A program made the translations under genes and the position numbers. The notes under the pieces were generated by a model that made no database searches, had not been told where the DNA came from, and was given only the letters and a program-made list of their open reading frames with translations. This document shows positions 3,492-40,060 of a DNA stretch of 64,000 nt, piece by piece. The stretch is taken from NCBI GenBank assembly GCA_049587715.1, contig JBAVEL010000186.1, positions 16,567 to 80,566 of the forward strand. The letters are read 5' to 3'. Origin of the DNA: Bacteroidota bacterium (GTDB lineage: Bacteria > Bacteroidota > Ignavibacteria > UBA10030 > UBA6906). Each line of letters starts with the position of its first letter. Position 1 is the first letter of the stretch.

Positions 3492-5380
3492 TCATTGTGC
3501 TACGAATTTGTCCGTCGAAGCTCTACCTCCGGCCGGCGCTTCTTGCAGCGGCCGCCGGCTTCGCCCTTCTCCCCATCCACCCGGCTCGCGCGGAAGGGGA
3601 GGGCCGGGACCCCTCCTCGGTCCCTTCCTGGGCGGCGGAGGCGGTCTGGTATCAGATCTTCCCCGAGAGATTCCGGAACGGCGACCCGGGGAACGATCCT
3701 TCCCCCGCCGACATGGAGGGGTCCTGGCCGCACGAAACGCCTGGACTGTGGCGTGTCTCCGACTGGAAGGGGGACTGGTACGCCCTCCAGGAATGGGAGA
3801 GGGACCCGGGGAAGGGGTTCTTCCACACTGTGCAGCAACGCCGGTACGGGGGAGACCTGCAGGGGGTCCTGGACAAGCTGGACTACCTGGCCGAGCTGGG
3901 CATCACCGCGATCTACTTCAATCCCCTCTTCGAATCCCCGTCGCTGCACAAGTACGACGCGGCGATGTACCATCACATCGACAACAACTTCGGGCCGGAT
4001 CCGGCCGGAGACCGCCTGATCTGGGCCGCCGAGAACCCGGCGGACCCGGCCACGTGGCGCTGGACCTCGGCGGACAGCCTCTTCCTGCGGCTCATTGCGG
4101 AGGCGCACCGGCGGGGGATCAGGATCATCATCGACGGCGTGTTCAACCACGCGGGGATCACCTTCTGGGCGTTCCGGGATGTCCGCCGGCGCGGCGCGGC
4201 GTCGCCGTATGCCGACTGGTTCCGCATCAGGCAGTGGGACGATCCGGCAACCCCCGGGGACGAGTTCGACTACGAGGGCTGGTACGGCGTACGGGAGCTT
4301 CCCGAGTTCCGGGAGGATGACGGAGGCATCGTCCCCGGACCCAGGGAACACATCCGCCATGTGGTGCGCAGGTGGATGGATCCGAACGGAGACGGAGATC
4401 CCTCCGACGGGGTGGACGGGTGGCGCCTGGATGTGGCGGAGATGGTGGCCGTCCCCTTCTGGAGAGAGTTCCGGACCTGGGTGCGGTCACTGAATCCCGA
4501 GGCCTACCTCGTGGGCGAAGTCTGGTGGGAGGACTGGAACGCGGAAAAGATGTTCAACGCCGAGCCGTGGCTCCGGGGCGACGTATTCGACGCCGTCATG
4601 AACTACCGCTGGGCGAGGGAGGCCGGGAGGTTCTTCAAGGCCGACCGGCATCGCATCGGCGCCCCGGAATTCGACGCCCGTCTTGCGCGGCTCCGCGCGG
4701 ACTACCGCCCCGAAGTGAACGGGGTCCTCCTGAACCTGCTGGACAGCCACGATACCGACCGGCTTGCTTCCCAGATTGTGAATCGGGACGCCCTGTACGA
4801 CAAGGGGACGGGTGTGAGCGACAACCGCGCGTATGCGGTGCGGAAACCCGACGCCCGGGAGCGGAGCATCCAGAAGCTGATGGTGCTGCACCAGATGACC
4901 TACGTGGGCGCGCCGTGCGTGTACTATGGAGACGAGGCGGGCATGTGGGGGGCCGACGACCCCGACTGCCGGAAGCCGATGCTCTGGGCGGATGCGGCCT
5001 ACACCCCCGAGGTCTCCCATCCGTTCGGCCTGGAGCGGCCTGCCGACGACAACACCTTTGATGCGGATCTGTTCGCATACTACGCGGAAGCGATCCGGCT
5101 CCGGAAGTCCTTCCCCGCCCTCCGCCTGGGAAGCGTGGAAACGGTGCTGGCCGACGGCCGGAGCAACCTGCTGGTGTACCTGCGCGTCCTTCCCTCCCAG
5201 CGGGTGCTGACGGCGCTCAACCCCGGGGACGGGGCGGCGGCCTGCATCCTGACGGAGAAGGCCCTGGGGGGCGGGCGCCTGATCCGGGTCTTCGGAGAGG
5301 GGAGCGCGGAGCCCGCTCCGGGCGGCGTGTCGGTGACCATCCCCGGGAGATCCGGGTCGGTGTTCAGGGTGGCCCCGTGA
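3488..5380 (+). CDS. Secreted GH13 alpha-amylase-family glycoside hydrolase (cyclomaltodextrinase/neopullulanase-like)
   Basis: Start MIIVLRICPSK... overlaps the LacI stop (ATGA). Signal-peptide-like N-terminus. GH13 conserved regions: IIIDGVFNHAG, GWRLDVAEMV, EVWW, LLDSHDTDR. Track ORF 3419 start rejected because it is read in LacI's own frame. Confidence 0.85.
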   Translation: MIIVLRICPSKLYLRPALLAAAAGFALLPIHPARAEGEGRDPSSVPSWAAEAVWYQIFPERFRNGDPGNDPSPADMEGSWPHETPGLWRVSDWKGDWYALQEWERDPGKGFFHTVQQRRYGGDLQGVLDKLDYLAELGITAIYFNPLFESPSLHKYDAAMYHHIDNNFGPDPAGDRLIWAAENPADPATWRWTSADSLFLRLIAEAHRRGIRIIIDGVFNHAGITFWAFRDVRRRGAASPYADWFRIRQWDDPATPGDEFDYEGWYGVRELPEFREDDGGIVPGPREHIRHVVRRWMDPNGDGDPSDGVDGWRLDVAEMVAVPFWREFRTWVRSLNPEAYLVGEVWWEDWNAEKMFNAEPWLRGDVFDAVMNYRWAREAGRFFKADRHRIGAPEFDARLARLRADYRPEVNGVLLNLLDSHDTDRLASQIVNRDALYDKGTGVSDNRAYAVRKPDARERSIQKLMVLHQMTYVGAPCVYYGDEAGMWGADDPDCRKPMLWADAAYTPEVSHPFGLERPADDNTFDADLFAYYAEAIRLRKSFPALRLGSVETVLADGRSNLLVYLRVLPSQRVLTALNPGDGAAACILTEKALGGGRLIRVFGEGSAEPAPGGVSVTIPGRSGSVFRVAP

Positions 5381-7053
5381 CCAGGGCAGGGCTCGTCTGC
5401 GCCGGAGGGATGCTCCTCCTGTGCGCGGCCTGTGGAAGGGAGGAGGAGGGGGTGCTGGCCCGCGCGGGTGATGTCATCGTCCGGGTGGACGAATTCCGCG
5501 AGCGCTATGCGGCCTACCTGGCAATGGGTTCCGTGCGGGACAATATCGCGGCGCGGCGGGACGTTCTCAACAACATGCTGAACGAAGGGCTCATCCATGC
5601 CGACATGCGGCGCCAGGGGCTGGACCGCGACGCCGAGGCGCGTGACCGCATCGACGCGATCCGCGCTCAGGCTCTCCTGGACGGCTACGCGCGCCGCATC
5701 TCCACCGATACCCTCACGGTCCCGGAAGAGGAGCTGAAGGAGGAATTCCGGCGGACAAACACGCGGGTCCGGGCCCGCTACGTGTACGGGCCCACCCGGG
5801 AGGATGCCCTGCGTCTCAGGAGGCGTCTGGAGTCGGGGGAGAGCTTCGAGGCGCTGGCCCGCGAGGTCTTCGAAGACCCGGGACTCGCCTCCAACGGAGG
5901 ATCCCTCGGGTCTTTCACGGCGGGGGAGATGGAGCCCGCCCTGGAAGAGGCGGCGTTTGCCCTCCCCCCGGGAGCCCTCTCCGGGCCCGTGAAGCTCTCC
6001 ATGGGATTTGCCATCATACGGGTGGACGACCGGAGGCAGGTTCCCCTCGCTTCGGAATACGACTACGCCCGGAAGAAGGAACAGCTTGCCCGGACCGTTG
6101 TCGAGAGGAAGACCCTGGAGTATCTCGGCAGGGAGCTGGAGGGGATTCGCGGGCGCCTTGCCCCCCGCTTCCGGAAGGAAACCGCGGCGGAGCTGCTCGG
6201 GTCCTGGAACGCCCTGTTTCCGGAGGAGGGGGCGGCCGTGGAGCAGTCCGGATCCGCCGCCTCCCCCGACTTCCGTGCCCGCGAGCTTGTCCGGTGGCAG
6301 GAGGGTGCATGGAGCGTGGAGGAATTCATCCGGAGGGCCCGTGCATCGACGGACCGCCAGCGGCGCCGGGTGAAGACCGAAGCGGACCTGGAGGAATTCG
6401 TCACCGGGCTGGCGGCCCGGGAGGTGCTTGCCGTGCGCGCGCGGGCCTCATCCCTGGAGGAGGACCCCGCCGTGCGGGCCCAGGTGGAGAAGCACACCGG
6501 AATCTACATGCTCAAGCGCTGGCGGAGCCGGGTGGAAGAGGCCGCCGTGCGGGGAGGGTGGCCCGAGGATTCCCTGCGGGATGAGTTCCGCCGCAACGGA
6601 AGCCGGTACATGGTACCCCCCGAGGTGAACGTGGCGGAGATCCTGGTACGGACCCGGAAGGAGGCGGAGGATCTGGCTCGGCGGGTCCGCCGGGGCGAGG
6701 ATTTCGGAGCCCTCGCCCGCAGGTACTCCATACGGCCCTCTTCGGCGCGGGCATCAGGGGAACTGGGCTTCGGAACCCGGACGACCTTCGGGATTCTGGG
6801 GGACCGGTTTTTTTCCGCCCGCAGGGGGGCGATCATCGGGCCGGAGTTCGTGGACCCGTACTACGGGGTCTTCACAATTCTGGAACGGAGGGAAGGAAGG
6901 CCCATGACCTTCGAGGAGGCCCGTGGGGCCCTCCTCCGGGACCGGACGGCCTCGGCCAGAAGCGTCGCGTTCCGCGCGGCGGTGGATGGGCTCCGGTCGC
7001 GGGCCGAGGTGGTGATGGATATGGACATGCTTGCCAATCTCGTCGTCGAGTAA
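5377..7053 (+). CDS. SurA/PrsA-like peptidyl-prolyl cis-trans isomerase (two parvulin domains), lipoprotein
   Basis: Lipobox LLLCAACG. Two PpiC-type rotamase domains (GGSLGSFTAGEMEPALEEAAF... and SGELGFGTRTTFGI...). GTG start overlaps the upstream stop; ATG at 5407 is an alternative start. Confidence 0.75.
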   Translation: MTRAGLVCAGGMLLLCAACGREEEGVLARAGDVIVRVDEFRERYAAYLAMGSVRDNIAARRDVLNNMLNEGLIHADMRRQGLDRDAEARDRIDAIRAQALLDGYARRISTDTLTVPEEELKEEFRRTNTRVRARYVYGPTREDALRLRRRLESGESFEALAREVFEDPGLASNGGSLGSFTAGEMEPALEEAAFALPPGALSGPVKLSMGFAIIRVDDRRQVPLASEYDYARKKEQLARTVVERKTLEYLGRELEGIRGRLAPRFRKETAAELLGSWNALFPEEGAAVEQSGSAASPDFRARELVRWQEGAWSVEEFIRRARASTDRQRRRVKTEADLEEFVTGLAAREVLAVRARASSLEEDPAVRAQVEKHTGIYMLKRWRSRVEEAAVRGGWPEDSLRDEFRRNGSRYMVPPEVNVAEILVRTRKEAEDLARRVRRGEDFGALARRYSIRPSSARASGELGFGTRTTFGILGDRFFSARRGAIIGPEFVDPYYGVFTILERREGRPMTFEEARGALLRDRTASARSVAFRAAVDGLRSRAEVVMDMDMLANLVVE

Positions 7054-7072
7054 TCTACCAAAGGAACAACTC

Positions 7073-9877
7073 ATGAACGAACCACGCCGTCATGCCGTCC
7101 TCCTCGGATTGCTGTTGTGCCTGGGAGGAGTCGCCGTTGCCGGAACCACGGGGAAGATCACCGGGACGGTCCGAGACGCCCAGACGGGCGAGCCGATCGT
7201 GGGGGCCAGCATCGTCATCGAGGGAACCCGGACCGGGGCCGCCACGGATGTCGATGGGTACTATGTCATCCTGAACGTTCCGCCCGGCCGCCATACCCTG
7301 GCGGGTTCGGCGGTGGGCTACACCCGCAAGACCATGAGGGACGTGTCCGTTTCGGTGGATCTCACAACGCGGGCGGACTTCTCCCTCTCGCAGGAGGCGG
7401 TGCAGGCGGAGGAGATCGTGGTGACGGCGGAGCGCCGGGTCATCAAGAAGGACCTCACCTCCTCGGAGTCGAGGGTGACGGCCCAGCAAATCGAGAGCCT
7501 CCCCGTCTCGGAAGTGGCGGAGGTGCTGTCGCTCCAGGCCGGGATTACGACGGACAAGGGGGGCGGGATCCACATCCGGGGGGGGCGTACCAGCGAGGTG
7601 GCATACTGGGTGGACGGGGTGTCGGTCTCCGACGTATATGACGGCACGCAGGCCGTGCAGGTGGACAACAACTCCGTGCAGGAGCTGCAGGTCATCAGCG
7701 GCACCTTCAACGCCGAGTACGGCCAGGCCATGTCGGGCATCGTCAACATCGTGACGAAGGACGGGGACCAGGAGTTCCGGGGGAGTCTCTCCTCCTATGC
7801 GGGGGACTATCTCACCGCCGATGACGGCATCTTCTTCAACAGCGACGACATCCGTCCCTTCGCCAGCCGGAACGTGGAAGGGAGCATCAGCGGTCCGGTG
7901 CCGGGGATCCAGGGCCTGACATTCTACGTTTCGGGCCGCTATTTCGAGACCGACGGCTGGCTGTACGGCAACAGGGTGTACAACGCCGACGGCACGCTCG
8001 CATCGGCGGCGGATACAAACCGCGACGATTCCGGGAATCAGCTCTCCCTGGTTCCGGGATCGCATCCCGTCCCCATGAACAACCGCACCCGCCTGTCCGG
8101 GCAGGCCAAGCTGACCTACCAGTTCTCGGGGGACATGAAGCTCGCCCTGAGCGGGCTTGCGAGCGATGTGGAGTTCCGGGACTACAATCACGACTACAAG
8201 TACATGCCGGATGCGGATGTGCGGAAGTTCGACCGGGGATACAGCGTGTCGGCCCTCTGGACACATTCCCTTTCCCCCACATCGCTCTACACCGTCAACA
8301 CGTCCTACTTCATGAAGCAGTTTGACGAGTATCTGTACGAGAACCCCCTGGACCCCCGGTACATTGTCACTCCCGACCCGGTCCTCCGGCAGAGGAACCT
8401 GAGGGAATTCCTGAAGTTCGGGACGAACAACCACCAGTTCGTCCGGCGGACGGAGTCGCGCGTCGCCAAGCTGGACTATACCGACCAGGTCAGCCGGCTG
8501 CACCAGATCAAGGCGGGGGTGGAGGGGAAGCTGCACCGGCTGTATCTGGAGGATTACAACGTCCGCAACGCCCCCAACACCACGACCGTCGTGGTGATTC
8601 CGGAGTGGTACGGCCCCCAATACCAGGAGTACACGGAGCGGCCGGTTGAGTTCTCGGCGTACCTCCAGGACAAGCTGGAGTACGAGAGCATGATCGTGAA
8701 TGTGGGGCTCCGGTTCGACTACTTTGACTCGCGCGGGAGGGTCCCCCTGGATCCCCAGGATCCCAACGCCTTCAATCCCGCCAAGGACGAGAACCGTGTG
8801 GATCTGAACGGGGACGGCATCAAGTCGGATCTGGAGCAGGTGGAACCCGGAGTGCTCTCGGCCCGGCTGGCACGGTGGTACCGCAGCGCCACGGCCAAGT
8901 ACAGTGTGAGCCCCCGCCTCGGCATCTCCTACCCCATTACCGACAGGGGGGTCCTGCACTTTTCCTACGGGCACTTCCTGCAGATTCCCTCTTTCATACA
9001 CCTCTACCAGAACCCCGGCTTCAAGGTGCAGCCCACGCTGGCAGGCGTGCAGGGGGTCTACGGGAACGCCGACCTGGAAGCGCAGAAGACGGTCCAGTAT
9101 GAGCTGGGACTCCAGCAGCAGCTGACCGAGGACTTGAGCTTCGACCTGACCGGGTTCTACCGCGACACGCGGGAGTGGGTGACCACCAGCACCGCCATCC
9201 CCGTCCGGGACCCGGCCACGGCCATCTCCAGCTACACGACCTACGAAAACAAGGACTACGCCAACGCCCGGGGCATCACGCTCTCGTTGAACAAACGTCC
9301 CAGCAATCTCTGGTCCCTCTCCCTCTCGTATACATACCAGACCGCCGAGGGCATCAACTCCAATCCGGACGACGCCCAGGCGGCCCTGGTGAACAACTCA
9401 CAGCCGGCGCAGCAGCTCATCCCCCTGGACTGGGACCAGACACACACCGCCAACCTGACCGTGGGAGTGGGGGAACAGGACTGGGGGGTCTTCCTGCTTG
9501 CCCGTTACGGCTCGGGTCTTCCCTATTCCCCCGTGCTGAACCAGGCGGAGGGAAGTGGCCAGGATGCGAACCGCGCCGCCCTGCGGAACAGCCGCAGACG
9601 GCCCCCCTCCTACACTGTGGACATGCGTCTGTTCAAGAACTTCAGGGTGGAACCCCTGGATGTGAGCGTCTTCCTGAAGGTCTTCAACCTCTTTGACCGC
9701 AGGAACGAGAACGACATCTACGGCGAGACCGGACGGGCCACCGCCACGCCCGCCGCCCTGGGACTCCCCGCTTCGCCCGGCACCGACAGGGTGAACACGG
9801 TGGTGGAGTTCCTGAACCAGCCGCAGTTCTATTCCGAGCCGCGGGAAGTGCAGATCGGACTGGAAATCAACTTCTGA
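7073..9877 (+). CDS. TonB-dependent receptor (carboxypeptidase-regulatory-like domain + plug + beta-barrel)
   Basis: Start MNEPRRHAVLLGLLLCLGGVAVAG (signal peptide). CarboxypepD_reg-like GKITGTVRDAQTGEPIVGASIV..DVDGYYV. Plug motifs IVVTAERR, ESLPVSEVAEVLSLQAGI. Ends in an aromatic residue (..LEINF) typical of OM barrels. Track TTG start at 7031 trimmed. Confidence 0.8.
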   Translation: MNEPRRHAVLLGLLLCLGGVAVAGTTGKITGTVRDAQTGEPIVGASIVIEGTRTGAATDVDGYYVILNVPPGRHTLAGSAVGYTRKTMRDVSVSVDLTTRADFSLSQEAVQAEEIVVTAERRVIKKDLTSSESRVTAQQIESLPVSEVAEVLSLQAGITTDKGGGIHIRGGRTSEVAYWVDGVSVSDVYDGTQAVQVDNNSVQELQVISGTFNAEYGQAMSGIVNIVTKDGDQEFRGSLSSYAGDYLTADDGIFFNSDDIRPFASRNVEGSISGPVPGIQGLTFYVSGRYFETDGWLYGNRVYNADGTLASAADTNRDDSGNQLSLVPGSHPVPMNNRTRLSGQAKLTYQFSGDMKLALSGLASDVEFRDYNHDYKYMPDADVRKFDRGYSVSALWTHSLSPTSLYTVNTSYFMKQFDEYLYENPLDPRYIVTPDPVLRQRNLREFLKFGTNNHQFVRRTESRVAKLDYTDQVSRLHQIKAGVEGKLHRLYLEDYNVRNAPNTTTVVVIPEWYGPQYQEYTERPVEFSAYLQDKLEYESMIVNVGLRFDYFDSRGRVPLDPQDPNAFNPAKDENRVDLNGDGIKSDLEQVEPGVLSARLARWYRSATAKYSVSPRLGISYPITDRGVLHFSYGHFLQIPSFIHLYQNPGFKVQPTLAGVQGVYGNADLEAQKTVQYELGLQQQLTEDLSFDLTGFYRDTREWVTTSTAIPVRDPATAISSYTTYENKDYANARGITLSLNKRPSNLWSLSLSYTYQTAEGINSNPDDAQAALVNNSQPAQQLIPLDWDQTHTANLTVGVGEQDWGVFLLARYGSGLPYSPVLNQAEGSGQDANRAALRNSRRRPPSYTVDMRLFKNFRVEPLDVSVFLKVFNLFDRRNENDIYGETGRATATPAALGLPASPGTDRVNTVVEFLNQPQFYSEPREVQIGLEINF

Positions 9878-37036: not shown

Positions 37037-37044
37037 CAATCGGC
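37037..37044. repeat. Target-site duplication copy 1 (CAATCGGC)
   Basis: 8-bp direct repeat abutting IRL. The identical 8-mer abuts IRR at 40053-40060. Confidence 0.65.
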
Positions 37045-37079
37045 GGTACTGTCCTAATTAGGGGGAGGTTGTCCTAAAT
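37045..37079. repeat. Left terminal inverted repeat (IRL, 35 bp; contains two tgtcctaa sub-repeats)
   Basis: See the mobile_element entry. Confidence 0.75.
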
Positions 37080-37185
37080 CGGTGGGAGTTCCACGATCCT
37101 CGCGCCATACATGAAACGCGAGTTTAGAATCCAACCAGCTTGGAAGGCTGGTTTTCTTCATGACCGCTTCACTCCCACCGATTCA

Positions 37186-38025
37186 TTATGCGGCCGCCCT
37201 CTGTGTTGCCCAACCCGACAAACCCGTCCATGTCCAAATGTGCTTTGTTAGACCCGCCTCCATCGCGGGGGTAACGCGTAGCGTCTCGTGGACCCTGGCG
37301 AAGTTGTAATGCCAGAAGTACAGCGCCAGAGCCGCTTTTAGGTTCTCCCATTTCTTGCTGTAGGCGTTGGTGAGACGCGCAAACCGCTTCATCCCTATCC
37401 TCATGCTGAGATTCTGCCTCTCAATGTGGGAGGTTGAAATGTGCTTCCGCTTAGGCTTGCCGAAGACGGGTATTATTTCCACCCGGACAATGCCTGCCGG
37501 ACTGTACCGCCTTTCAGGGCTTCTATCCACCTGGGCGTAACTCTTCGCAACCTGCCCGTAGTCAATATCTGCCCCCCAAATCCTATCCACAACATCGCGG
37601 TAGGGCGAGAAGGCATCGGTTGAAAGTTGGAATCGTGTCTTGACGCGGGCGGCCACATCCCGCATGAATACCTCTGCGGTCTGGACGGTCCGCTTCCCAA
37701 GTCTGAAAGACGGGATGAGCTTGGAGTCGCTGTCCATAGCCACAAAGCAATACTGATCGCCCGTAAACTCGTCTTGGTTTTCGGGGCGAATGAAACGCTG
37801 GTGCTTCCCTACATAGGTCCAGATTTCATCAACTTGGAGTCTCTTCACGCTCAGGTCCCGCATTTCAGAGTCCATGAACGCCTCACACGCTTCCCCGGCT
37901 GATACGAGAAGCCGCATGATCGTGTCCCGGTGAATCCCGGATAGGCGTTCGGTGGATCGGATTGAGTTCCCTTCGGCCAAGAGGGAAAGGGCAAGGGCCT
38001 TCTTTTCAGCAGACAGTACGTTCAT
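37186..38025 (-). CDS. IS1-family-like transposase (single ORF: N-terminal HTH + DDE catalytic domain)
   Basis: N-terminal HTH MNVLSAEKKALALSLLAEGNSIRSTERLSGIHRDTIMRLL. Catalytic region KRLQVDEIWTYVGKH...CFVAMDSDSKL...ISTSHIERQNLSMRIGMKRFARLTNAYSKKWENLKAALALYFWHYNF. Its spacing parallels E. coli IS1 InsB (MDEQWGYVG...[25 protein letters not shown]). GGAG RBS. An IS1595-like assignment is not excluded. Confidence 0.75.
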   Translation of the reverse strand: MNVLSAEKKALALSLLAEGNSIRSTERLSGIHRDTIMRLLVSAGEACEAFMDSEMRDLSVKRLQVDEIWTYVGKHQRFIRPENQDEFTGDQYCFVAMDSDSKLIPSFRLGKRTVQTAEVFMRDVAARVKTRFQLSTDAFSPYRDVVDRIWGADIDYGQVAKSYAQVDRSPERRYSPAGIVRVEIIPVFGKPKRKHISTSHIERQNLSMRIGMKRFARLTNAYSKKWENLKAALALYFWHYNFARVHETLRVTPAMEAGLTKHIWTWTGLSGWATQRAAA

Positions 38026-38048
38026 CGCGAGTCTCCGTCAGATTCCGA

Positions 38049-38077
38049 TTTGACTTTCCCCCGCGATGAACGTATAT
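38049..38077 (+). promoter_or_regulatory. Sigma70-like promoter TTGACT-N17-TATATT facing away from the transposase start
   Basis: ttgactttcccccgcgatgaacgtatatt lies immediately upstream (on the plus strand) of a structured ~190-nt region ending in an intrinsic terminator. Confidence 0.5.
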
Positions 38078-38084
38078 TAGGTCA

Positions 38085-38275
38085 GGGTCTATGTCCGTTC
38101 ACGCGGGCATGGATTTCAGGGCTTCGAAGGTGGTCACACACCTGAGAAGCCCGCTTGTAAGCGGGCCTACTGTGGTATTTTGAGCTGCTTACTCATACAC
38201 CCATCCTTTCCCGAAGCGTTGCAGCGCTTCGATTGAGGTTTGACAGAGGCGCTCTTAGTGAGCGCCTTTTTATTT
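38085..38275 (+). ncRNA. Candidate small RNA (~190 nt) inside the mobile element, between the transposase 5-prime end and the 128-aa gene 3-prime end
   Basis: Bounded by the TTGACT-N17-TATATT promoter and an intrinsic terminator (aggcgctc ttagt gagcgcct + ttttattt). Two further hairpins lie inside (gcccgcttgtaagcgggc, cgaagcgttgcagcgcttcg). The only ORF is 30 codons without a convincing RBS. Confidence 0.3.
38247..38275 (+). terminator. Intrinsic terminator (8-bp GC stem + TTTTATTT) for the candidate sRNA
   Basis: AGGCGCTCttagtGAGCGCCTttttattt. Oriented for plus-strand transcription. Overlaps the stop codon of the convergent 128-aa gene. Confidence 0.5.
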
Positions 38276-38656
38276 GAGGTCATAGACCCCTCGGGCCGCC
38301 CGCTTAAGTCTTGCACTCTTCTTATCACATTCCTGGGACAGAATAGCACCAAGAGCCCTCGCCTTGTCCTTGTTATCGCCCAGACTGATCCCCTTTTCCT
38401 CCACCGCGAACTTCAAGACCTCTTCATTCGTCACATGTCTCCCCATCCTATGAATCAGCTCGATAGTCGCATCTACAACACGGCCTCGGATCGTGTTCGA
38501 GCCTGGGCGTGGCGGAGAGACTGAGACGGCCAACGCTCCTGTCTCGCCCCCAGACTCGCCCTTGCGTATCGCGATCAGTTGAAGAAGAAGCTCCCTTTCC
38601 CTTTCAATCTCTGTAAGTCGGGCCTCCAGGACTTCGGTCGAAAGTGTGGCACACAT
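38270..38656 (-). CDS. Hypothetical 128-aa protein (N-terminal coiled coil, possible C-terminal DNA-binding fold), cargo of the mobile element
   Basis: ATG at 38656 with AGGAG RBS. Its own TTGACA-N17-TATACT promoter lies upstream. Sequence is MCATLSTEVLEARLTEIERERELLLQLIAIRKG...TIRGRVVDATIELIHRMGRHVTNEEVLKFAVEEKGISLG... No family recognised. Confidence 0.6.
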   Translation of the reverse strand: MCATLSTEVLEARLTEIERERELLLQLIAIRKGESGGETGALAVSVSPPRPGSNTIRGRVVDATIELIHRMGRHVTNEEVLKFAVEEKGISLGDNKDKARALGAILSQECDKKSARLKRAARGVYDLK

Positions 38657-38683
38657 GTTTAGGTTCTCCTATTAGCCGGGTAT

Positions 38684-38712
38684 AGTATACAAAAAAACCC
38701 TTTACTTGTCAA
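38684..38712 (-). promoter_or_regulatory. Sigma70-like promoter TTGACA-N17-TATACT for the 128-aa gene (minus strand)
   Basis: Reverse complement reads cTTGACAagtaaagggtttttttgTATACTataccc, about 28 nt upstream of the ATG. Confidence 0.6.
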
Positions 38713-38748
38713 GCCCACCACGGTCCGCATTTTAGGCTTCCTATGGAC

Positions 38749-38776
38749 GCCGCAATGCATTATGCCGCAATCAATT
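38749..38776. promoter_or_regulatory. Two direct 13-mer repeats GCCGCAATnnATT between divergent promoters (candidate operator)
   Basis: acGCCGCAATgcATTatGCCGCAATcaATTgtgg lies between the 128-aa gene promoter and the panA-like promoter. Confidence 0.35.
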
Positions 38777-38784
38777 GTGGTTGC

Positions 38785-38813
38785 TTGCTTTTTGTGTTTC
38801 GCTGTTGTATATT
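38785..38813 (+). promoter_or_regulatory. Promoter TTGCTT-N17-TATATT for the Panacea-domain operon
   Basis: ttgcttgctttttgtgtttcgctgttgtatatt. The transcript would start ~25 nt before the strong AGGAGG RBS of the 38844 gene. Confidence 0.45.
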
Positions 38814-38843
38814 GGGTTGTAGAACATACCAGGAGGTCACAAC

Positions 38844-39314
38844 ATGTATCCCATGAAGGCCATCGCCAACTTCTTCATTGATAGGGCGATGAAGGAGGGG
38901 GCCGAAATGAGCCCTATGAAGATCCAAAAGCTGTTATATTTCGCTTACGGGATATACCACGTCAAAACGGGGGAACCTTTGTTTAGCGATAGGTTCGAAG
39001 TATGGAAATACGGTCCCGTTATCTCTGAGCTTTACCATTTGCTCAAGGGATACGGAAGCGATCAGATCGACAGGCTTTTGCCGGATTTTGACATGGCAAC
39101 TATGAGAGTTGTCACGCCGACGATCCCGAGGGAAGAAAAGGAATTACTCGTCTTTCTAACTGAGTTTTGGGAGGTCTACAGGGGGTATTCGCCTATTCGG
39201 CTCTCAAATGCAACCCATCTTCCTGGAACACCGTGGGATGAGGCGAATCGAGCAGGCGAGAAGGTCATCAGCGATCAACGCATGGATGCCTACTTCAGCG
39301 GCTTGGTGCAATGA
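38844..39314 (+). CDS. Panacea-domain (DUF4065) protein, PanA-like putative antitoxin
   Basis: AGGAGG RBS 7 nt upstream. MSPMKIQKLLYFAYGIYHVKTGEPLFSDRFEVWKYGPVISELYHLLKGYG matches the conserved Panacea core (SocA/PanA antitoxins). Stop overlaps the next start (ATGA). Confidence 0.8.
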   Translation: MYPMKAIANFFIDRAMKEGAEMSPMKIQKLLYFAYGIYHVKTGEPLFSDRFEVWKYGPVISELYHLLKGYGSDQIDRLLPDFDMATMRVVTPTIPREEKELLVFLTEFWEVYRGYSPIRLSNATHLPGTPWDEANRAGEKVISDQRMDAYFSGLVQ

Positions 39315-39661
39315 AACTCATGGGAGTCCCGAAGTTACCCCCAGGTCCAGAAGCGCCCACGCTCCAAACACAGCAGGAAATGGAGCTTTACCATTGTAAG
39401 GAGTCGGACCTTAGACTAAGGGGGATAGCACAGGACATTGAGGAAAGAAAGACCTACGCTCGAAAAACCTTCAGATTAGCAGGCTGGTGGCTCTTTGGGG
39501 TGTTTGTCTTGCTTATCCTGGGTGGGCTCAAAATGGAGCCTCTCATGTTCCAATTGCCCGAGAGCGTATTGTTGGCTGTGATCGGGGGAACAACTCTAAA
39601 CATACTGGGGGTCTTTGTGTTCGTAATGAAGTACCTCTTCGATGTGAAGAGGGAGGTATAG
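39311..39661 (+). CDS. Small (116 aa) protein with a soluble N-terminal region and two C-terminal TM helices; candidate cognate toxin of the Panacea antitoxin
   Basis: Translationally coupled to the Panacea gene. TM1 FRLAGWWLFGVFVLLILGGL, TM2 SVLLAVIGGTTLNILGVFVFVM. No family recognised. Confidence 0.55.
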   Translation: MKLMGVPKLPPGPEAPTLQTQQEMELYHCKESDLRLRGIAQDIEERKTYARKTFRLAGWWLFGVFVLLILGGLKMEPLMFQLPESVLLAVIGGTTLNILGVFVFVMKYLFDVKREV

Positions 39662-39696
39662 AAAAAACCCCGAAGCTGTTTGCAGCAACTTCGGGG
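39662..39696 (-). terminator. Perfect 8-bp GC hairpin (CCCCGAAG/CTTCGGGG) with the T-run on the minus strand, immediately after the 116-aa gene stop
   Basis: Plus strand aaaaaaCCCCGAAGctgtttgcagcaaCTTCGGGGtcgg. The U-tract exists only for minus-strand transcription. It may also serve as a 3-prime stabiliser of the plus-strand operon. Confidence 0.45.
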
Positions 39697-39766
39697 TCGG
39701 AAACCGTTCCGCCCGGCTAACTGATGGGGCAAGCTTCGAGGCGGAGGGCTCAAGGTATTGCTCTCC

Positions 39767-39795
39767 AATATACAAAACTCTGAGCCCGAAAGCAA
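39767..39795 (-). promoter_or_regulatory. Possible convergent promoter TTGCTT-N17-TATATT (minus strand), same architecture as the panA-like promoter
   Basis: Reverse complement reads gcTTGCTTtcgggctcagagttttgTATATTgg. It shares ttgtatattgg with the 38785-38813 promoter. It would drive a short transcript ending at the 39662-39696 terminator. Confidence 0.3.
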
Positions 39796-39984
39796 GCCCC
39801 CGCCACTCATCGAAAGGGCCTCTTCTATGGCCATTTCAGGGTCTCGGCAGGGCTATAGGCTCATTTTCGTTGCCTATATCACGCTGAGAAATAGGAAGCG
39901 GATCTACGCAAGAGATTATGGCTTGCGGGCGTTCGCGATTTGGGTGAGGGACGATTAGTCTCTGACCCATCTGAGGCAAAACAC

Positions 39985-40021
39985 GGGACCCCGCATTGCT
40001 GTTCGGGGTCCCGTTCTATTT
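39985..40021. terminator. Bidirectional hairpin terminator (GGGACCCCG/CGGGGTCCC) just inside IRR
   Basis: 9-bp perfect stem. gttctattt follows on the plus strand and gtgttttg follows on the minus strand. Confidence 0.45.
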
Positions 40022-40052
40022 AGGACAAAACCCCTCTAATTAGGACAGCACC
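40018..40052. repeat. Right terminal inverted repeat (IRR, 35 bp)
   Basis: atttaggacaaaacccctctaattaggacagcacc is the inverse complement of IRL at 30/35 positions. Confidence 0.75.
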
Positions 40053-40060
40053 CAATCGGC
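40053..40060. repeat. Target-site duplication copy 2 (CAATCGGC)
   Basis: 8-bp direct repeat abutting IRR. Confidence 0.65.

Follow-up and report, generated by a model that had tools for sequence, protein, structure and literature searches.

R128, a gene for 128 residues on the minus strand (38656->38270) of a 64,000-nucleotide stretch of a Bacteroidota (Ignavibacteria) contig (GenBank JBAVEL010000186.1; the whole stretch is called the window here), was identified as a conserved companion of an IS1-family transposase. It is a true gene under selection and lies inside a 3008-bp element (37045-40052), with the transposase gene downstream and a divergent toxin–antitoxin operon on the other side. 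As judged from a structure model, its product is probably a small DNA-binding protein. The proposal developed below, that R128 is a dimeric winged-helix regulator which represses its own promoter (P_R) and hence the transposase, is one that we believe and doubt in equal measure.

The R128 gene and the element that carries it

That the reading frame is very likely a real gene, as stated in the first-pass annotation (made from the sequence alone), was borne out by homologues, selection and start signals. Fifteen homologues (46-100 % identity) were found by a word-index search and 88 cluster representatives of the family by an exhaustive profile search; full-length homologues occur in more than 25 loci. 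Codon alignments gave 0.15-0.35 non-synonymous changes per site against synonymous changes saturated at 0.7-0.9, so R128 is under purifying selection (pN, the non-synonymous rate, far below pS, the synonymous rate). The start signals listed in that annotation are both present. The ribosome-binding site (RBS) AGGAG, read in the sequence at 38670->38666 (minus strand), lies 9 nt ahead of the ATG, and the promoter TTGACA-N17-TATACT (P_R; 38684-38712, minus strand; TTGACA at 38712-38707, TATACT at 38689-38684) scored 11/12 in a consensus scan, as the top site of the 3.3-kb island. P_R is kept in all homologous loci, and promoter and RBS together are kept across relatives; R128 is probably expressed.

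No match to R128 was found in NCBIfam or by tblastn against 72,556 plasmids. The lack of any curated family at threshold would suit a spurious reading frame, or a pseudogene in decay, whose promoter match is a coincidence, but the probability of this is negligible: the promoter and RBS are conserved, and the full-length homologues, the low pN and a confident fold prediction (see below) already refute it.

The element is bounded by 35-nt terminal inverted repeats, one at the transposase end (37045-37079, starting GGTACTG) and one at the cargo end (40018-40052, terminating ...CAGCACC), which are 86 % complementary. Directly outside them lies a perfect 8-bp target-site duplication, CAATCGGC (left copy 37037-37044, right copy 40053-40060). 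Inverted ends and duplication together indicate that the 3008-bp unit transposed as one piece. Hallmarks of the IS1 family are GGnnnTG inverted ends and a target duplication of 8-9 bp, and the element has both. Its G+C content is approximately 52 %, against approximately 68 % in the flanks. Each terminal repeat region (37045-37089 and 40015-40053) consists of two tandem 20-nt units (TGTCCTAAnT...), which gives four potential protein-binding sites per element.

The transposase gene (37186-38025, minus strand) encodes 279 aa with an N-terminal helix-turn-helix (HTH) and a DDE domain. The protein matched NCBIfam transpos_IS1 with E 3.7e-17 and 62.9 bits, below the cutoff of 100, and Pfam DDE_Tnp_IS1 weakly (23.0 against 24.1). 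An identical protein at NCBI bears the name 'IS1 family transposase', and relatives are named likewise by NCBI and the Joint Genome Institute; more than 6400 proteins are related at E <= 1e-20. The transposase is 42 % identical to proteins named IS1-family transposases by the Prokaryotic Genome Annotation Pipeline on alphaproteobacterial plasmids, one of them beside a RES-Xre pair. Two such transposases (41-42 % identical), on an Acidiphilium plasmid (L028, NZ_CP041717) and a Hoeflea plasmid (L029), adjoin a RES/Xre (MbcTA-like) pair and a long XRE-family regulator; with these neighbours, the toxin–antitoxin association of the transposase clade may reach beyond the Fibrobacterota–Chlorobiota–Bacteroidota (FCB) group.

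Some 15 distinct loci with R128 homologues, all from metagenome-assembled genomes of Bacteroidota or Ignavibacteria or from metagenomes, were compared. Wherever a transposase is present in this set, an R128 homologue stands directly upstream of the same IS1-family transposase and in the same orientation. The spacer between the two is approximately 240 nt in the window, L004/5/6, L012, L013, L015, L022 and P0013, and differs in L023 and L027; the identity to R128 falls to 34 % (L015) and 21 % (L023) without loss of the linkage. The divergent neighbours vary: a Panacea gene with a transmembrane toxin and a 43-aa gene (window, L001, L004, L011, L016), Xre with an M78 peptidase (L012, L024, L026, L007), HicB with HicA (L022; HicB only in L014), and unrelated genes or none (L015, L023, P0013). 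The fixed order of R128 and transposase beside varying neighbours shows that R128 belongs to the backbone of the element, as a companion of the transposase, and that the exchangeable cargo is made up of the toxin–antitoxin and restriction-modification cassettes. The first-pass annotation had labelled R128 itself as cargo; this label was wrong, as the gene is a conserved transposase companion within the inverted ends of three independently bounded elements (window, L012, L023).

Three transposase relatives (L030, L031, L036), a small sample, were drawn independently of R128. A true R128 homologue was found in none of these three loci, and each has, adjoining the transposase, a protein of 169-204 aa in which a helix at the N-terminus is joined by a linker to a HARE-like winged helix, with a charged tail behind it (L030 3134-3748; L031 2953-3501; L036 2907-3416); the tail of one look-alike contains an AT-hook. 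Alignment of the look-alikes with the R128 family by hhalign gave 69 % probability and E 4.5e-5 over the winged helix. A coiled-coil and winged-helix partner thus seems to be general for the transposase clade.

Predicted fold of R128

The AlphaFold2 model of R128, built from an 82-sequence alignment, has a mean predicted local distance difference test (pLDDT) score of 87.9. Residues 7-34 are predicted to form a 28-residue coiled-coil helix with hydrophobic a/d positions, which matches the heptad-like N-terminus noticed before. A disordered linker (residues 35-55, pLDDT below 50) follows. In the model the C-terminal part (residues 56-127) is a winged helix, with helices 56-71 and 77-88, a recognition helix 98-111 and wing strands 117-121 and 124-127; the structure prediction that had been proposed as a check was thereby run, and it supports the small DNA-binding fold that had been suspected there.

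The Pfam families most often matched among the 82 relatives of R128 are all winged-helix families, none at threshold: HARE-HTH (PF05066) in 30/82 (best E 5.8e-5), WH_GDS1 in 16/82, WH_Rok in 13/82 (best E 1.8e-4) and AbiEi_4 in 8/82. R128 of the window scored 13.6 bits (E 0.09) against HARE-HTH, short of the gathering score of 25.9. Three helices and a C-terminal beta-hairpin, which make up the HARE-HTH winged helix, are found in the R128 model, the hairpin bears an R-G-x-Y/F motif, and this family is the commonest match among the relatives. It differs from R128 in that all matches of the R128 family stay below the gathering score. The described contexts of HARE-HTH, which are the RNA polymerase delta subunit, ASXL and restriction enzymes, do not include an N-terminal coiled coil, and the R128 loci lack a link to DNA-modification enzymes save for L012, where a restriction-modification pair is cargo. 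Membership of HARE-HTH is therefore not established, and the support reaches the level of the fold only.

The order of N-terminal helix, flexible linker and C-terminal winged helix is also that of Rok and H-NS-type silencers, and these too are encoded on mobile DNA that is AT-richer than its host. R128 might accordingly be a nucleoid-associated silencer of this type, which would coat or bridge the AT-richer DNA of the element and lower its cost or visibility in a host of 68 % G+C. The matching architecture, the WH_Rok matches, the Rok chains among the weak matches in profile searches of PDB sequences with the R128 family (all marginal, E >= 0.03), the charged tails and AT-hook of the look-alike neighbours and the low G+C content of the island are consistent with such a role. 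The Rok matches are, however, all sub-threshold and less frequent than those to HARE-HTH, R128 is much shorter than Rok (128 aa against 191 aa), and its single short helix (approximately 3-4 heptads) comes without a second oligomerisation interface. The recognition helix (...AILSQE..KKSARLKR...) is strongly conserved, being nearly unchanged in loci without a Panacea gene, and this suggests a specific target. A silencer of this kind is improbable.

Control region, leader and proposed regulation

The divergent promoter of the Panacea operon, TTGCTT-N17-TATATT, exists where it had been placed in the first-pass annotation (38785-38813, plus strand; read in the sequence). The N17 spacing requires the second of two overlapping TTGCTT copies, and the promoter was not called by the scan because its -35 box agrees with the consensus at 3/6 positions only, below the threshold. 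Relatives have TTGCTT or TTGACT at the -35 position, and both hexamers are conserved.

Two direct 13-mers, GCCGCAATnnATT, which had been proposed as a candidate operator, are also present on the plus strand (GCCGCAATGCATT at 38749-38761 and GCCGCAATCAATT at 38764-38776, 15 bp start to start). With up to one mismatch the pattern occurs at just these two sites in 64 kb; as 0.65 sites are expected and 11/100 shuffles gave two or more, the counts are not decisive by themselves. The copy at 38749, nearer to R128, is found as ATT(A/G)CGnn on the other strand in 5/5 Panacea-linked loci, where its distance to the Panacea -35 box is constant, and the copy at 38764 is weakly kept (GTTAC in 3/5). These GCCGCAAT repeats are confined to Panacea-linked loci. 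They lie 5' of both -35 boxes, at positions of roughly -45 to -72 relative to the Panacea start and -72 to -99 relative to that of R128, and since they overlap neither core promoter, their position is of an activator-type or auxiliary kind and not that of a classical operator.

One explanation of this layout would make R128 the dedicated third-component regulator of the Panacea pair, binding the GCCGCAAT repeats in the manner of PaaR (paaR-paaA-parE); such a regulator would be called for because the Panacea antitoxin has no DNA-binding domain. The antitoxin is indeed Panacea-only and lacks an HTH, and there is precedent in that an HTH is present in some PanA proteins only, and in that Panacea systems with a third gene, in some cases a regulator, are on record (PMC8832971). 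The divergent layout recurs in five distinct loci, two of which (L001, L011) have no transposase and yet keep R128 under purifying selection, and one repeat copy keeps its place in all five. The association is not specific, however. Homologues of 48-60 % identity with nearly the same recognition helix adjoin Xre and M78, HicAB or no toxin–antitoxin pair, so that the consistent co-occurrence with one toxin–antitoxin family that characterises a PaaR-like protein was not found. The repeat motif is absent from the non-Panacea loci, the repeats are placed 5' of each -35 box rather than over a core promoter, and with a spacing of 15 bp they face opposite sides of the double helix. We consider this explanation unlikely. 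Of the earlier suggestion that R128 controls its surroundings, a regulatory role for the element remains the best reading, and a Panacea-specific role through the repeats is not supported.

The candidate operator that we prefer is CTTGACAAGTAAAG, a near-palindrome over the -35 box of P_R (38700-38713, minus strand). This extension of the -35 box is invariant at all but 1-2 positions in five diverged Panacea-linked loci, and a perfect palindrome, CTTGACAAGTCAAG, stands at the transposase promoter of the distant relatives L023 and L027. In the intergenic alignment of the five Panacea-linked loci both promoters, CTTGACAAGTAAAG and the 38749 repeat copy are kept, the 38764 copy weakly; as synonymous sites are saturated between these relatives, the conserved non-coding blocks next to the genes are under selection. 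CTTGACAAGTAAAG was ranked above the GCCGCAAT repeats as the R128 operator candidate because the repeats are missing outside Panacea loci despite a nearly unchanged recognition helix and sit upstream of both -35 boxes. The repeats are real and conserved in one copy, but, being restricted to Panacea loci and placed outside the core promoters, they make the weaker operator candidate; they may still assist the weak Panacea promoter as an activator-type or auxiliary site.

Between R128 and the transposase lies a structured leader of 244 nt (38026-38269, minus strand), which was aligned across six loci and is conserved in seven; L030 has its core motif. It opens directly after the R128 stop codon with a hairpin that shows apparent compensatory changes. 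An A-run precedes this hairpin, which makes it a good intrinsic terminator on the opposite strand only; on the minus strand it has no U-tract. The block GAAAGGAnGGGTGTATGAGTAAG follows, with a Shine–Dalgarno (SD) sequence and a mini-ORF (open reading frame) of 8-9 codons (38196->38167 in the window, 9 codons, minus strand), then a CCCGC..GCGGG hairpin and another hairpin with apparent covariation. A 61-aa ORF at 38167-38352 (minus strand) was rejected as a gene, as conservation is limited to its final 9 codons, which are the mini-ORF. The last structure is a hairpin at the transposase start (38017-38074, minus strand; 38017-38029 paired with 38062-38074), with 13 perfect pairs and 15 in the minimum-free-energy fold. 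In the window this hairpin buries the start codon and leaves the SD (GGAG) in the loop, directly before the 3' arm, and equivalent pairings that bury the start codon and/or SD by means of different arm sequences were found in L004, L012, L013, L015 and L022. The 5' arm could also pair with GTGAACG, which is located upstream and would then act as an anti-sequester.

Folding z-scores of the leader against shuffled sequence were -6.0 (minus strand) and -6.6 (plus strand). The compensatory changes were read by eye; RNAalifold on a MAFFT alignment recovered the hairpins only partly, owing to register problems. No Rfam family matched the leader. An antisense RNA of approximately 190 nt (38050-38276, plus strand) is predicted from a promoter, TTGACT-N17-TATATT (38050-38078), and a terminator, in which the hairpin 38245-38269 is followed by a T-run to 38276 and overlaps the R128 stop codon. 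Both were called by the scan, and the promoter hexamers and the A-run/T-run are conserved.

In a promoter scan no sense-strand promoter was detected between R128 and the transposase. In L036 and L031, where the winged-helix gene is divergent, the same leader starts straight from a promoter of the type CTTGACA-N17-TATATT. On these two grounds P_R seems to drive the entire operon, in which R128 comes first and the leader and transposase gene follow.

We infer the following scheme. R128 would dimerise through its N-terminal coiled coil and contact DNA by its C-terminal winged helix. P_R would transcribe R128 first, and read-through past the stop-codon hairpin would extend the transcript into the leader and the transposase gene. 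By binding CTTGACAAGTAAAG over the -35 box, R128 would repress P_R in a negative autoregulation that caps transcription of the transposase. Further brakes, at the post-transcriptional level, would come from the start-codon hairpin and the antisense RNA. The divergent cargo promoter, which lies in the same control region of 190 bp, may be co-regulated.

Several observations weigh against this scheme. In L001, L011 and L024 an R128 homologue persists beside cargo under purifying selection without leader, transposase or ends, and it must therefore have a function that does not need the transposase. E109, a nearly invariant glutamate, sits in the recognition helix. CTTGACAAGTAAAG contains the -35 hexamer, and promoter function alone explains part of its conservation. 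More distant subfamilies carry other repeats, GCTTGTAA, which flank the -10 box; given these differing repeats there is no family-wide operator motif, and a search for a single motif common to all subfamilies left only the -35 region CTTGAC as the universal part.

R128 could instead be a transposition cofactor and no transcription factor, acting at the sub-terminal repeats or on the transposase to assemble or inhibit the transpososome. The tight synteny with the transposase would be explained, and the two 20-nt sub-repeats at each end offer more sites than one HTH needs; InsA of IS1 represses the IS1 promoter and also competes at the IS1 ends (PMC12428005). The transposase has an N-terminal HTH of its own, however, R128 is maintained in loci without ends or transposase, and by inspection no motif is common to the ends and the R128 control region. 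A cofactor role appears rather improbable.

Relation to known systems and neighbouring genes

IS1 itself offers a functional parallel to the repressor proposed here. InsA, like R128 as known from sequence and model, is a small promoter-proximal DNA-binding protein in an IS1-family element; R128, too, is expected to repress the promoter that feeds the transposase, and in both there is a further translational or RNA-level brake on the transposase, predicted in the case of the R128 element. InsA consists of a zinc finger and an HTH; by way of a -1 frameshift the IS1 transposase has the same DNA-binding domain, and InsA binds at the inverted ends, in which the IS1 promoter lies. R128, in contrast, is a separate coiled-coil and winged-helix protein encoded 244 nt upstream of a transposase with an HTH of its own; P_R is internal, approximately 1.3 kb from the nearest end, and there is no frameshift site. 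A programmed frameshift joining R128 to the transposase is ruled out by the 244-nt spacer, and R128 has no N-terminal domain in common with the transposase. R128 thus falls outside the InsA family, from which it is set apart by its fold, its internal promoter and the lack of a frameshift fusion.

In Tn3-family transposons, TnpR regulates tnpA and tnpR, and toxin–antitoxin pairs adjoin that control region (PMC7157771, Lima-Mendez et al. 2020); the proposed action of R128 would also resemble TnpR in its capacity as a repressor. There, as around R128, exchangeable and usually divergent pairs stand beside a small regulator gene and a common control region. The Tn3 DDE TnpA is approximately 1000 aa long and its resolvase is also a recombinase, whereas the R128 element is a 3-kb member of the IS1 family, and no recombinase domain was detectable in R128. 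A parallel to RNA-OUT/RNA-IN and fold-back inhibition in IS10 lies in the antisense promoter and terminator that face the transposase leader and in the hairpin that would hide the start codon in transcripts derived from upstream, as far as the sequence tells. Unlike in IS10, the predicted antisense RNA covers the intercistronic leader and does not overlap the transposase start codon.

Full-text literature searches returned no account of an R128-type partner or the leader, nor of the tendency of this clade to carry exchangeable cassettes for addiction and defence. More broadly, and tentatively, a Bacteroidota/Ignavibacteria clade of the IS1 family may be built on an undescribed module of a coiled-coil and winged-helix protein (R128 or a remoter look-alike), a structured leader with mini-ORF and start-hiding hairpin, and an antisense RNA; it would be specialised in the carriage of interchangeable addiction or defence cassettes beside this module (Panacea, Xre-M78, HicAB, RelB-YafQ, MvaI/BcnI restriction-modification, even a tRNA gene), and R128 would couple cassette expression to the state of the transposon or act by silencing. 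If R128 does regulate, it would offer a testable handle on poorly studied small IS1-type transposons with toxin–antitoxin and restriction-modification cassettes, and would show how they hold the transposase low yet keep their cargo, in a phylum-level group where the regulation of insertion sequences is almost unstudied. The wiring of addiction modules into transposition control, argued so far for Tn3, would extend to a second and much smaller family. A nameless protein family (the 88 cluster representatives and the transposase-adjoining look-alikes) would gain an annotation, and the occurrence of HTH-less Panacea pairs on such elements would be explained.

The cargo of the window element begins with the Panacea-domain antitoxin (156 aa, no HTH; 38844-39314, plus strand), which matched Pfam SocA_Panacea with E 3.5e-18 and the NCBIfam SocA antitoxin with E 6e-29, below the cutoff of the latter. 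The next gene (39311-39661, plus strand) overlaps the antitoxin stop codon and encodes a putative toxin of 116 aa, whose two hydrophobic segments were taken by eye as likely transmembrane helices. It is kept beside the antitoxin in four loci at 42-63 % identity, and its sole Pfam match is a weak one of a two-transmembrane kind. The 43-aa gene MAISGSRQGYRLIFVAYITLRNRKRIYARDYGLRAFAIWVRDD (39827-39958, plus strand) is a real gene at the end of the cargo module: its differences in four loci are mainly synonymous third-position changes, and tblastn identity is 64-72 %. No family match was found in Pfam or NCBIfam. It always lies downstream of the Panacea pair, also in loci without a transposase, and is a possible third member of this cassette.

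A second promoter of the Panacea type, TTGCTT-N17-TATATT, is present on the minus strand (39800->39765); it shares GTTGTATATTGG, and its hexamers are conserved in four loci. A strong minus-strand terminator follows at 39698-39666, which predicts a small RNA of approximately 90 nt convergent with the toxin gene. Outside the leader, Rfam gave only a weak terminator-like match on the island (anti-hemB, E 0.08), in the region 39660-39800.

Elements in other loci differ in content. That of L023 (2998 bp, 8-bp duplication AAACGGTC) contains a 269-aa gene, the R128 homologue R140, a tRNA-Leu gene and the transposase; the tRNA-Leu(UAG) gene and a second tRNA-like fragment (1873-1970) occupy the position of the structured leader within this IS1-family transposon. 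In L012 the element (3722-8062, 4341 bp) contains the M78 peptidase, Xre, the homologue R127, the transposase, an N6/N4 methylase and an MvaI/BcnI endonuclease, the last two as a complete pair between the transposase and the right end; a target duplication around it was looked for and not seen. The left end was not found in L022, nor in L004, where the contig ends too soon. In L013 a RelB-YafQ pair lies downstream of the transposase. The right end of the L022 element is directly followed (2770-2830) by an end-to-end remnant of 20 nt, TGTCCTAATAGGACAGTATC, with direct repeats, AAATTTCGGG, on either side; this may represent a footprint of the same insertion sequence or a miniature form derived from it.

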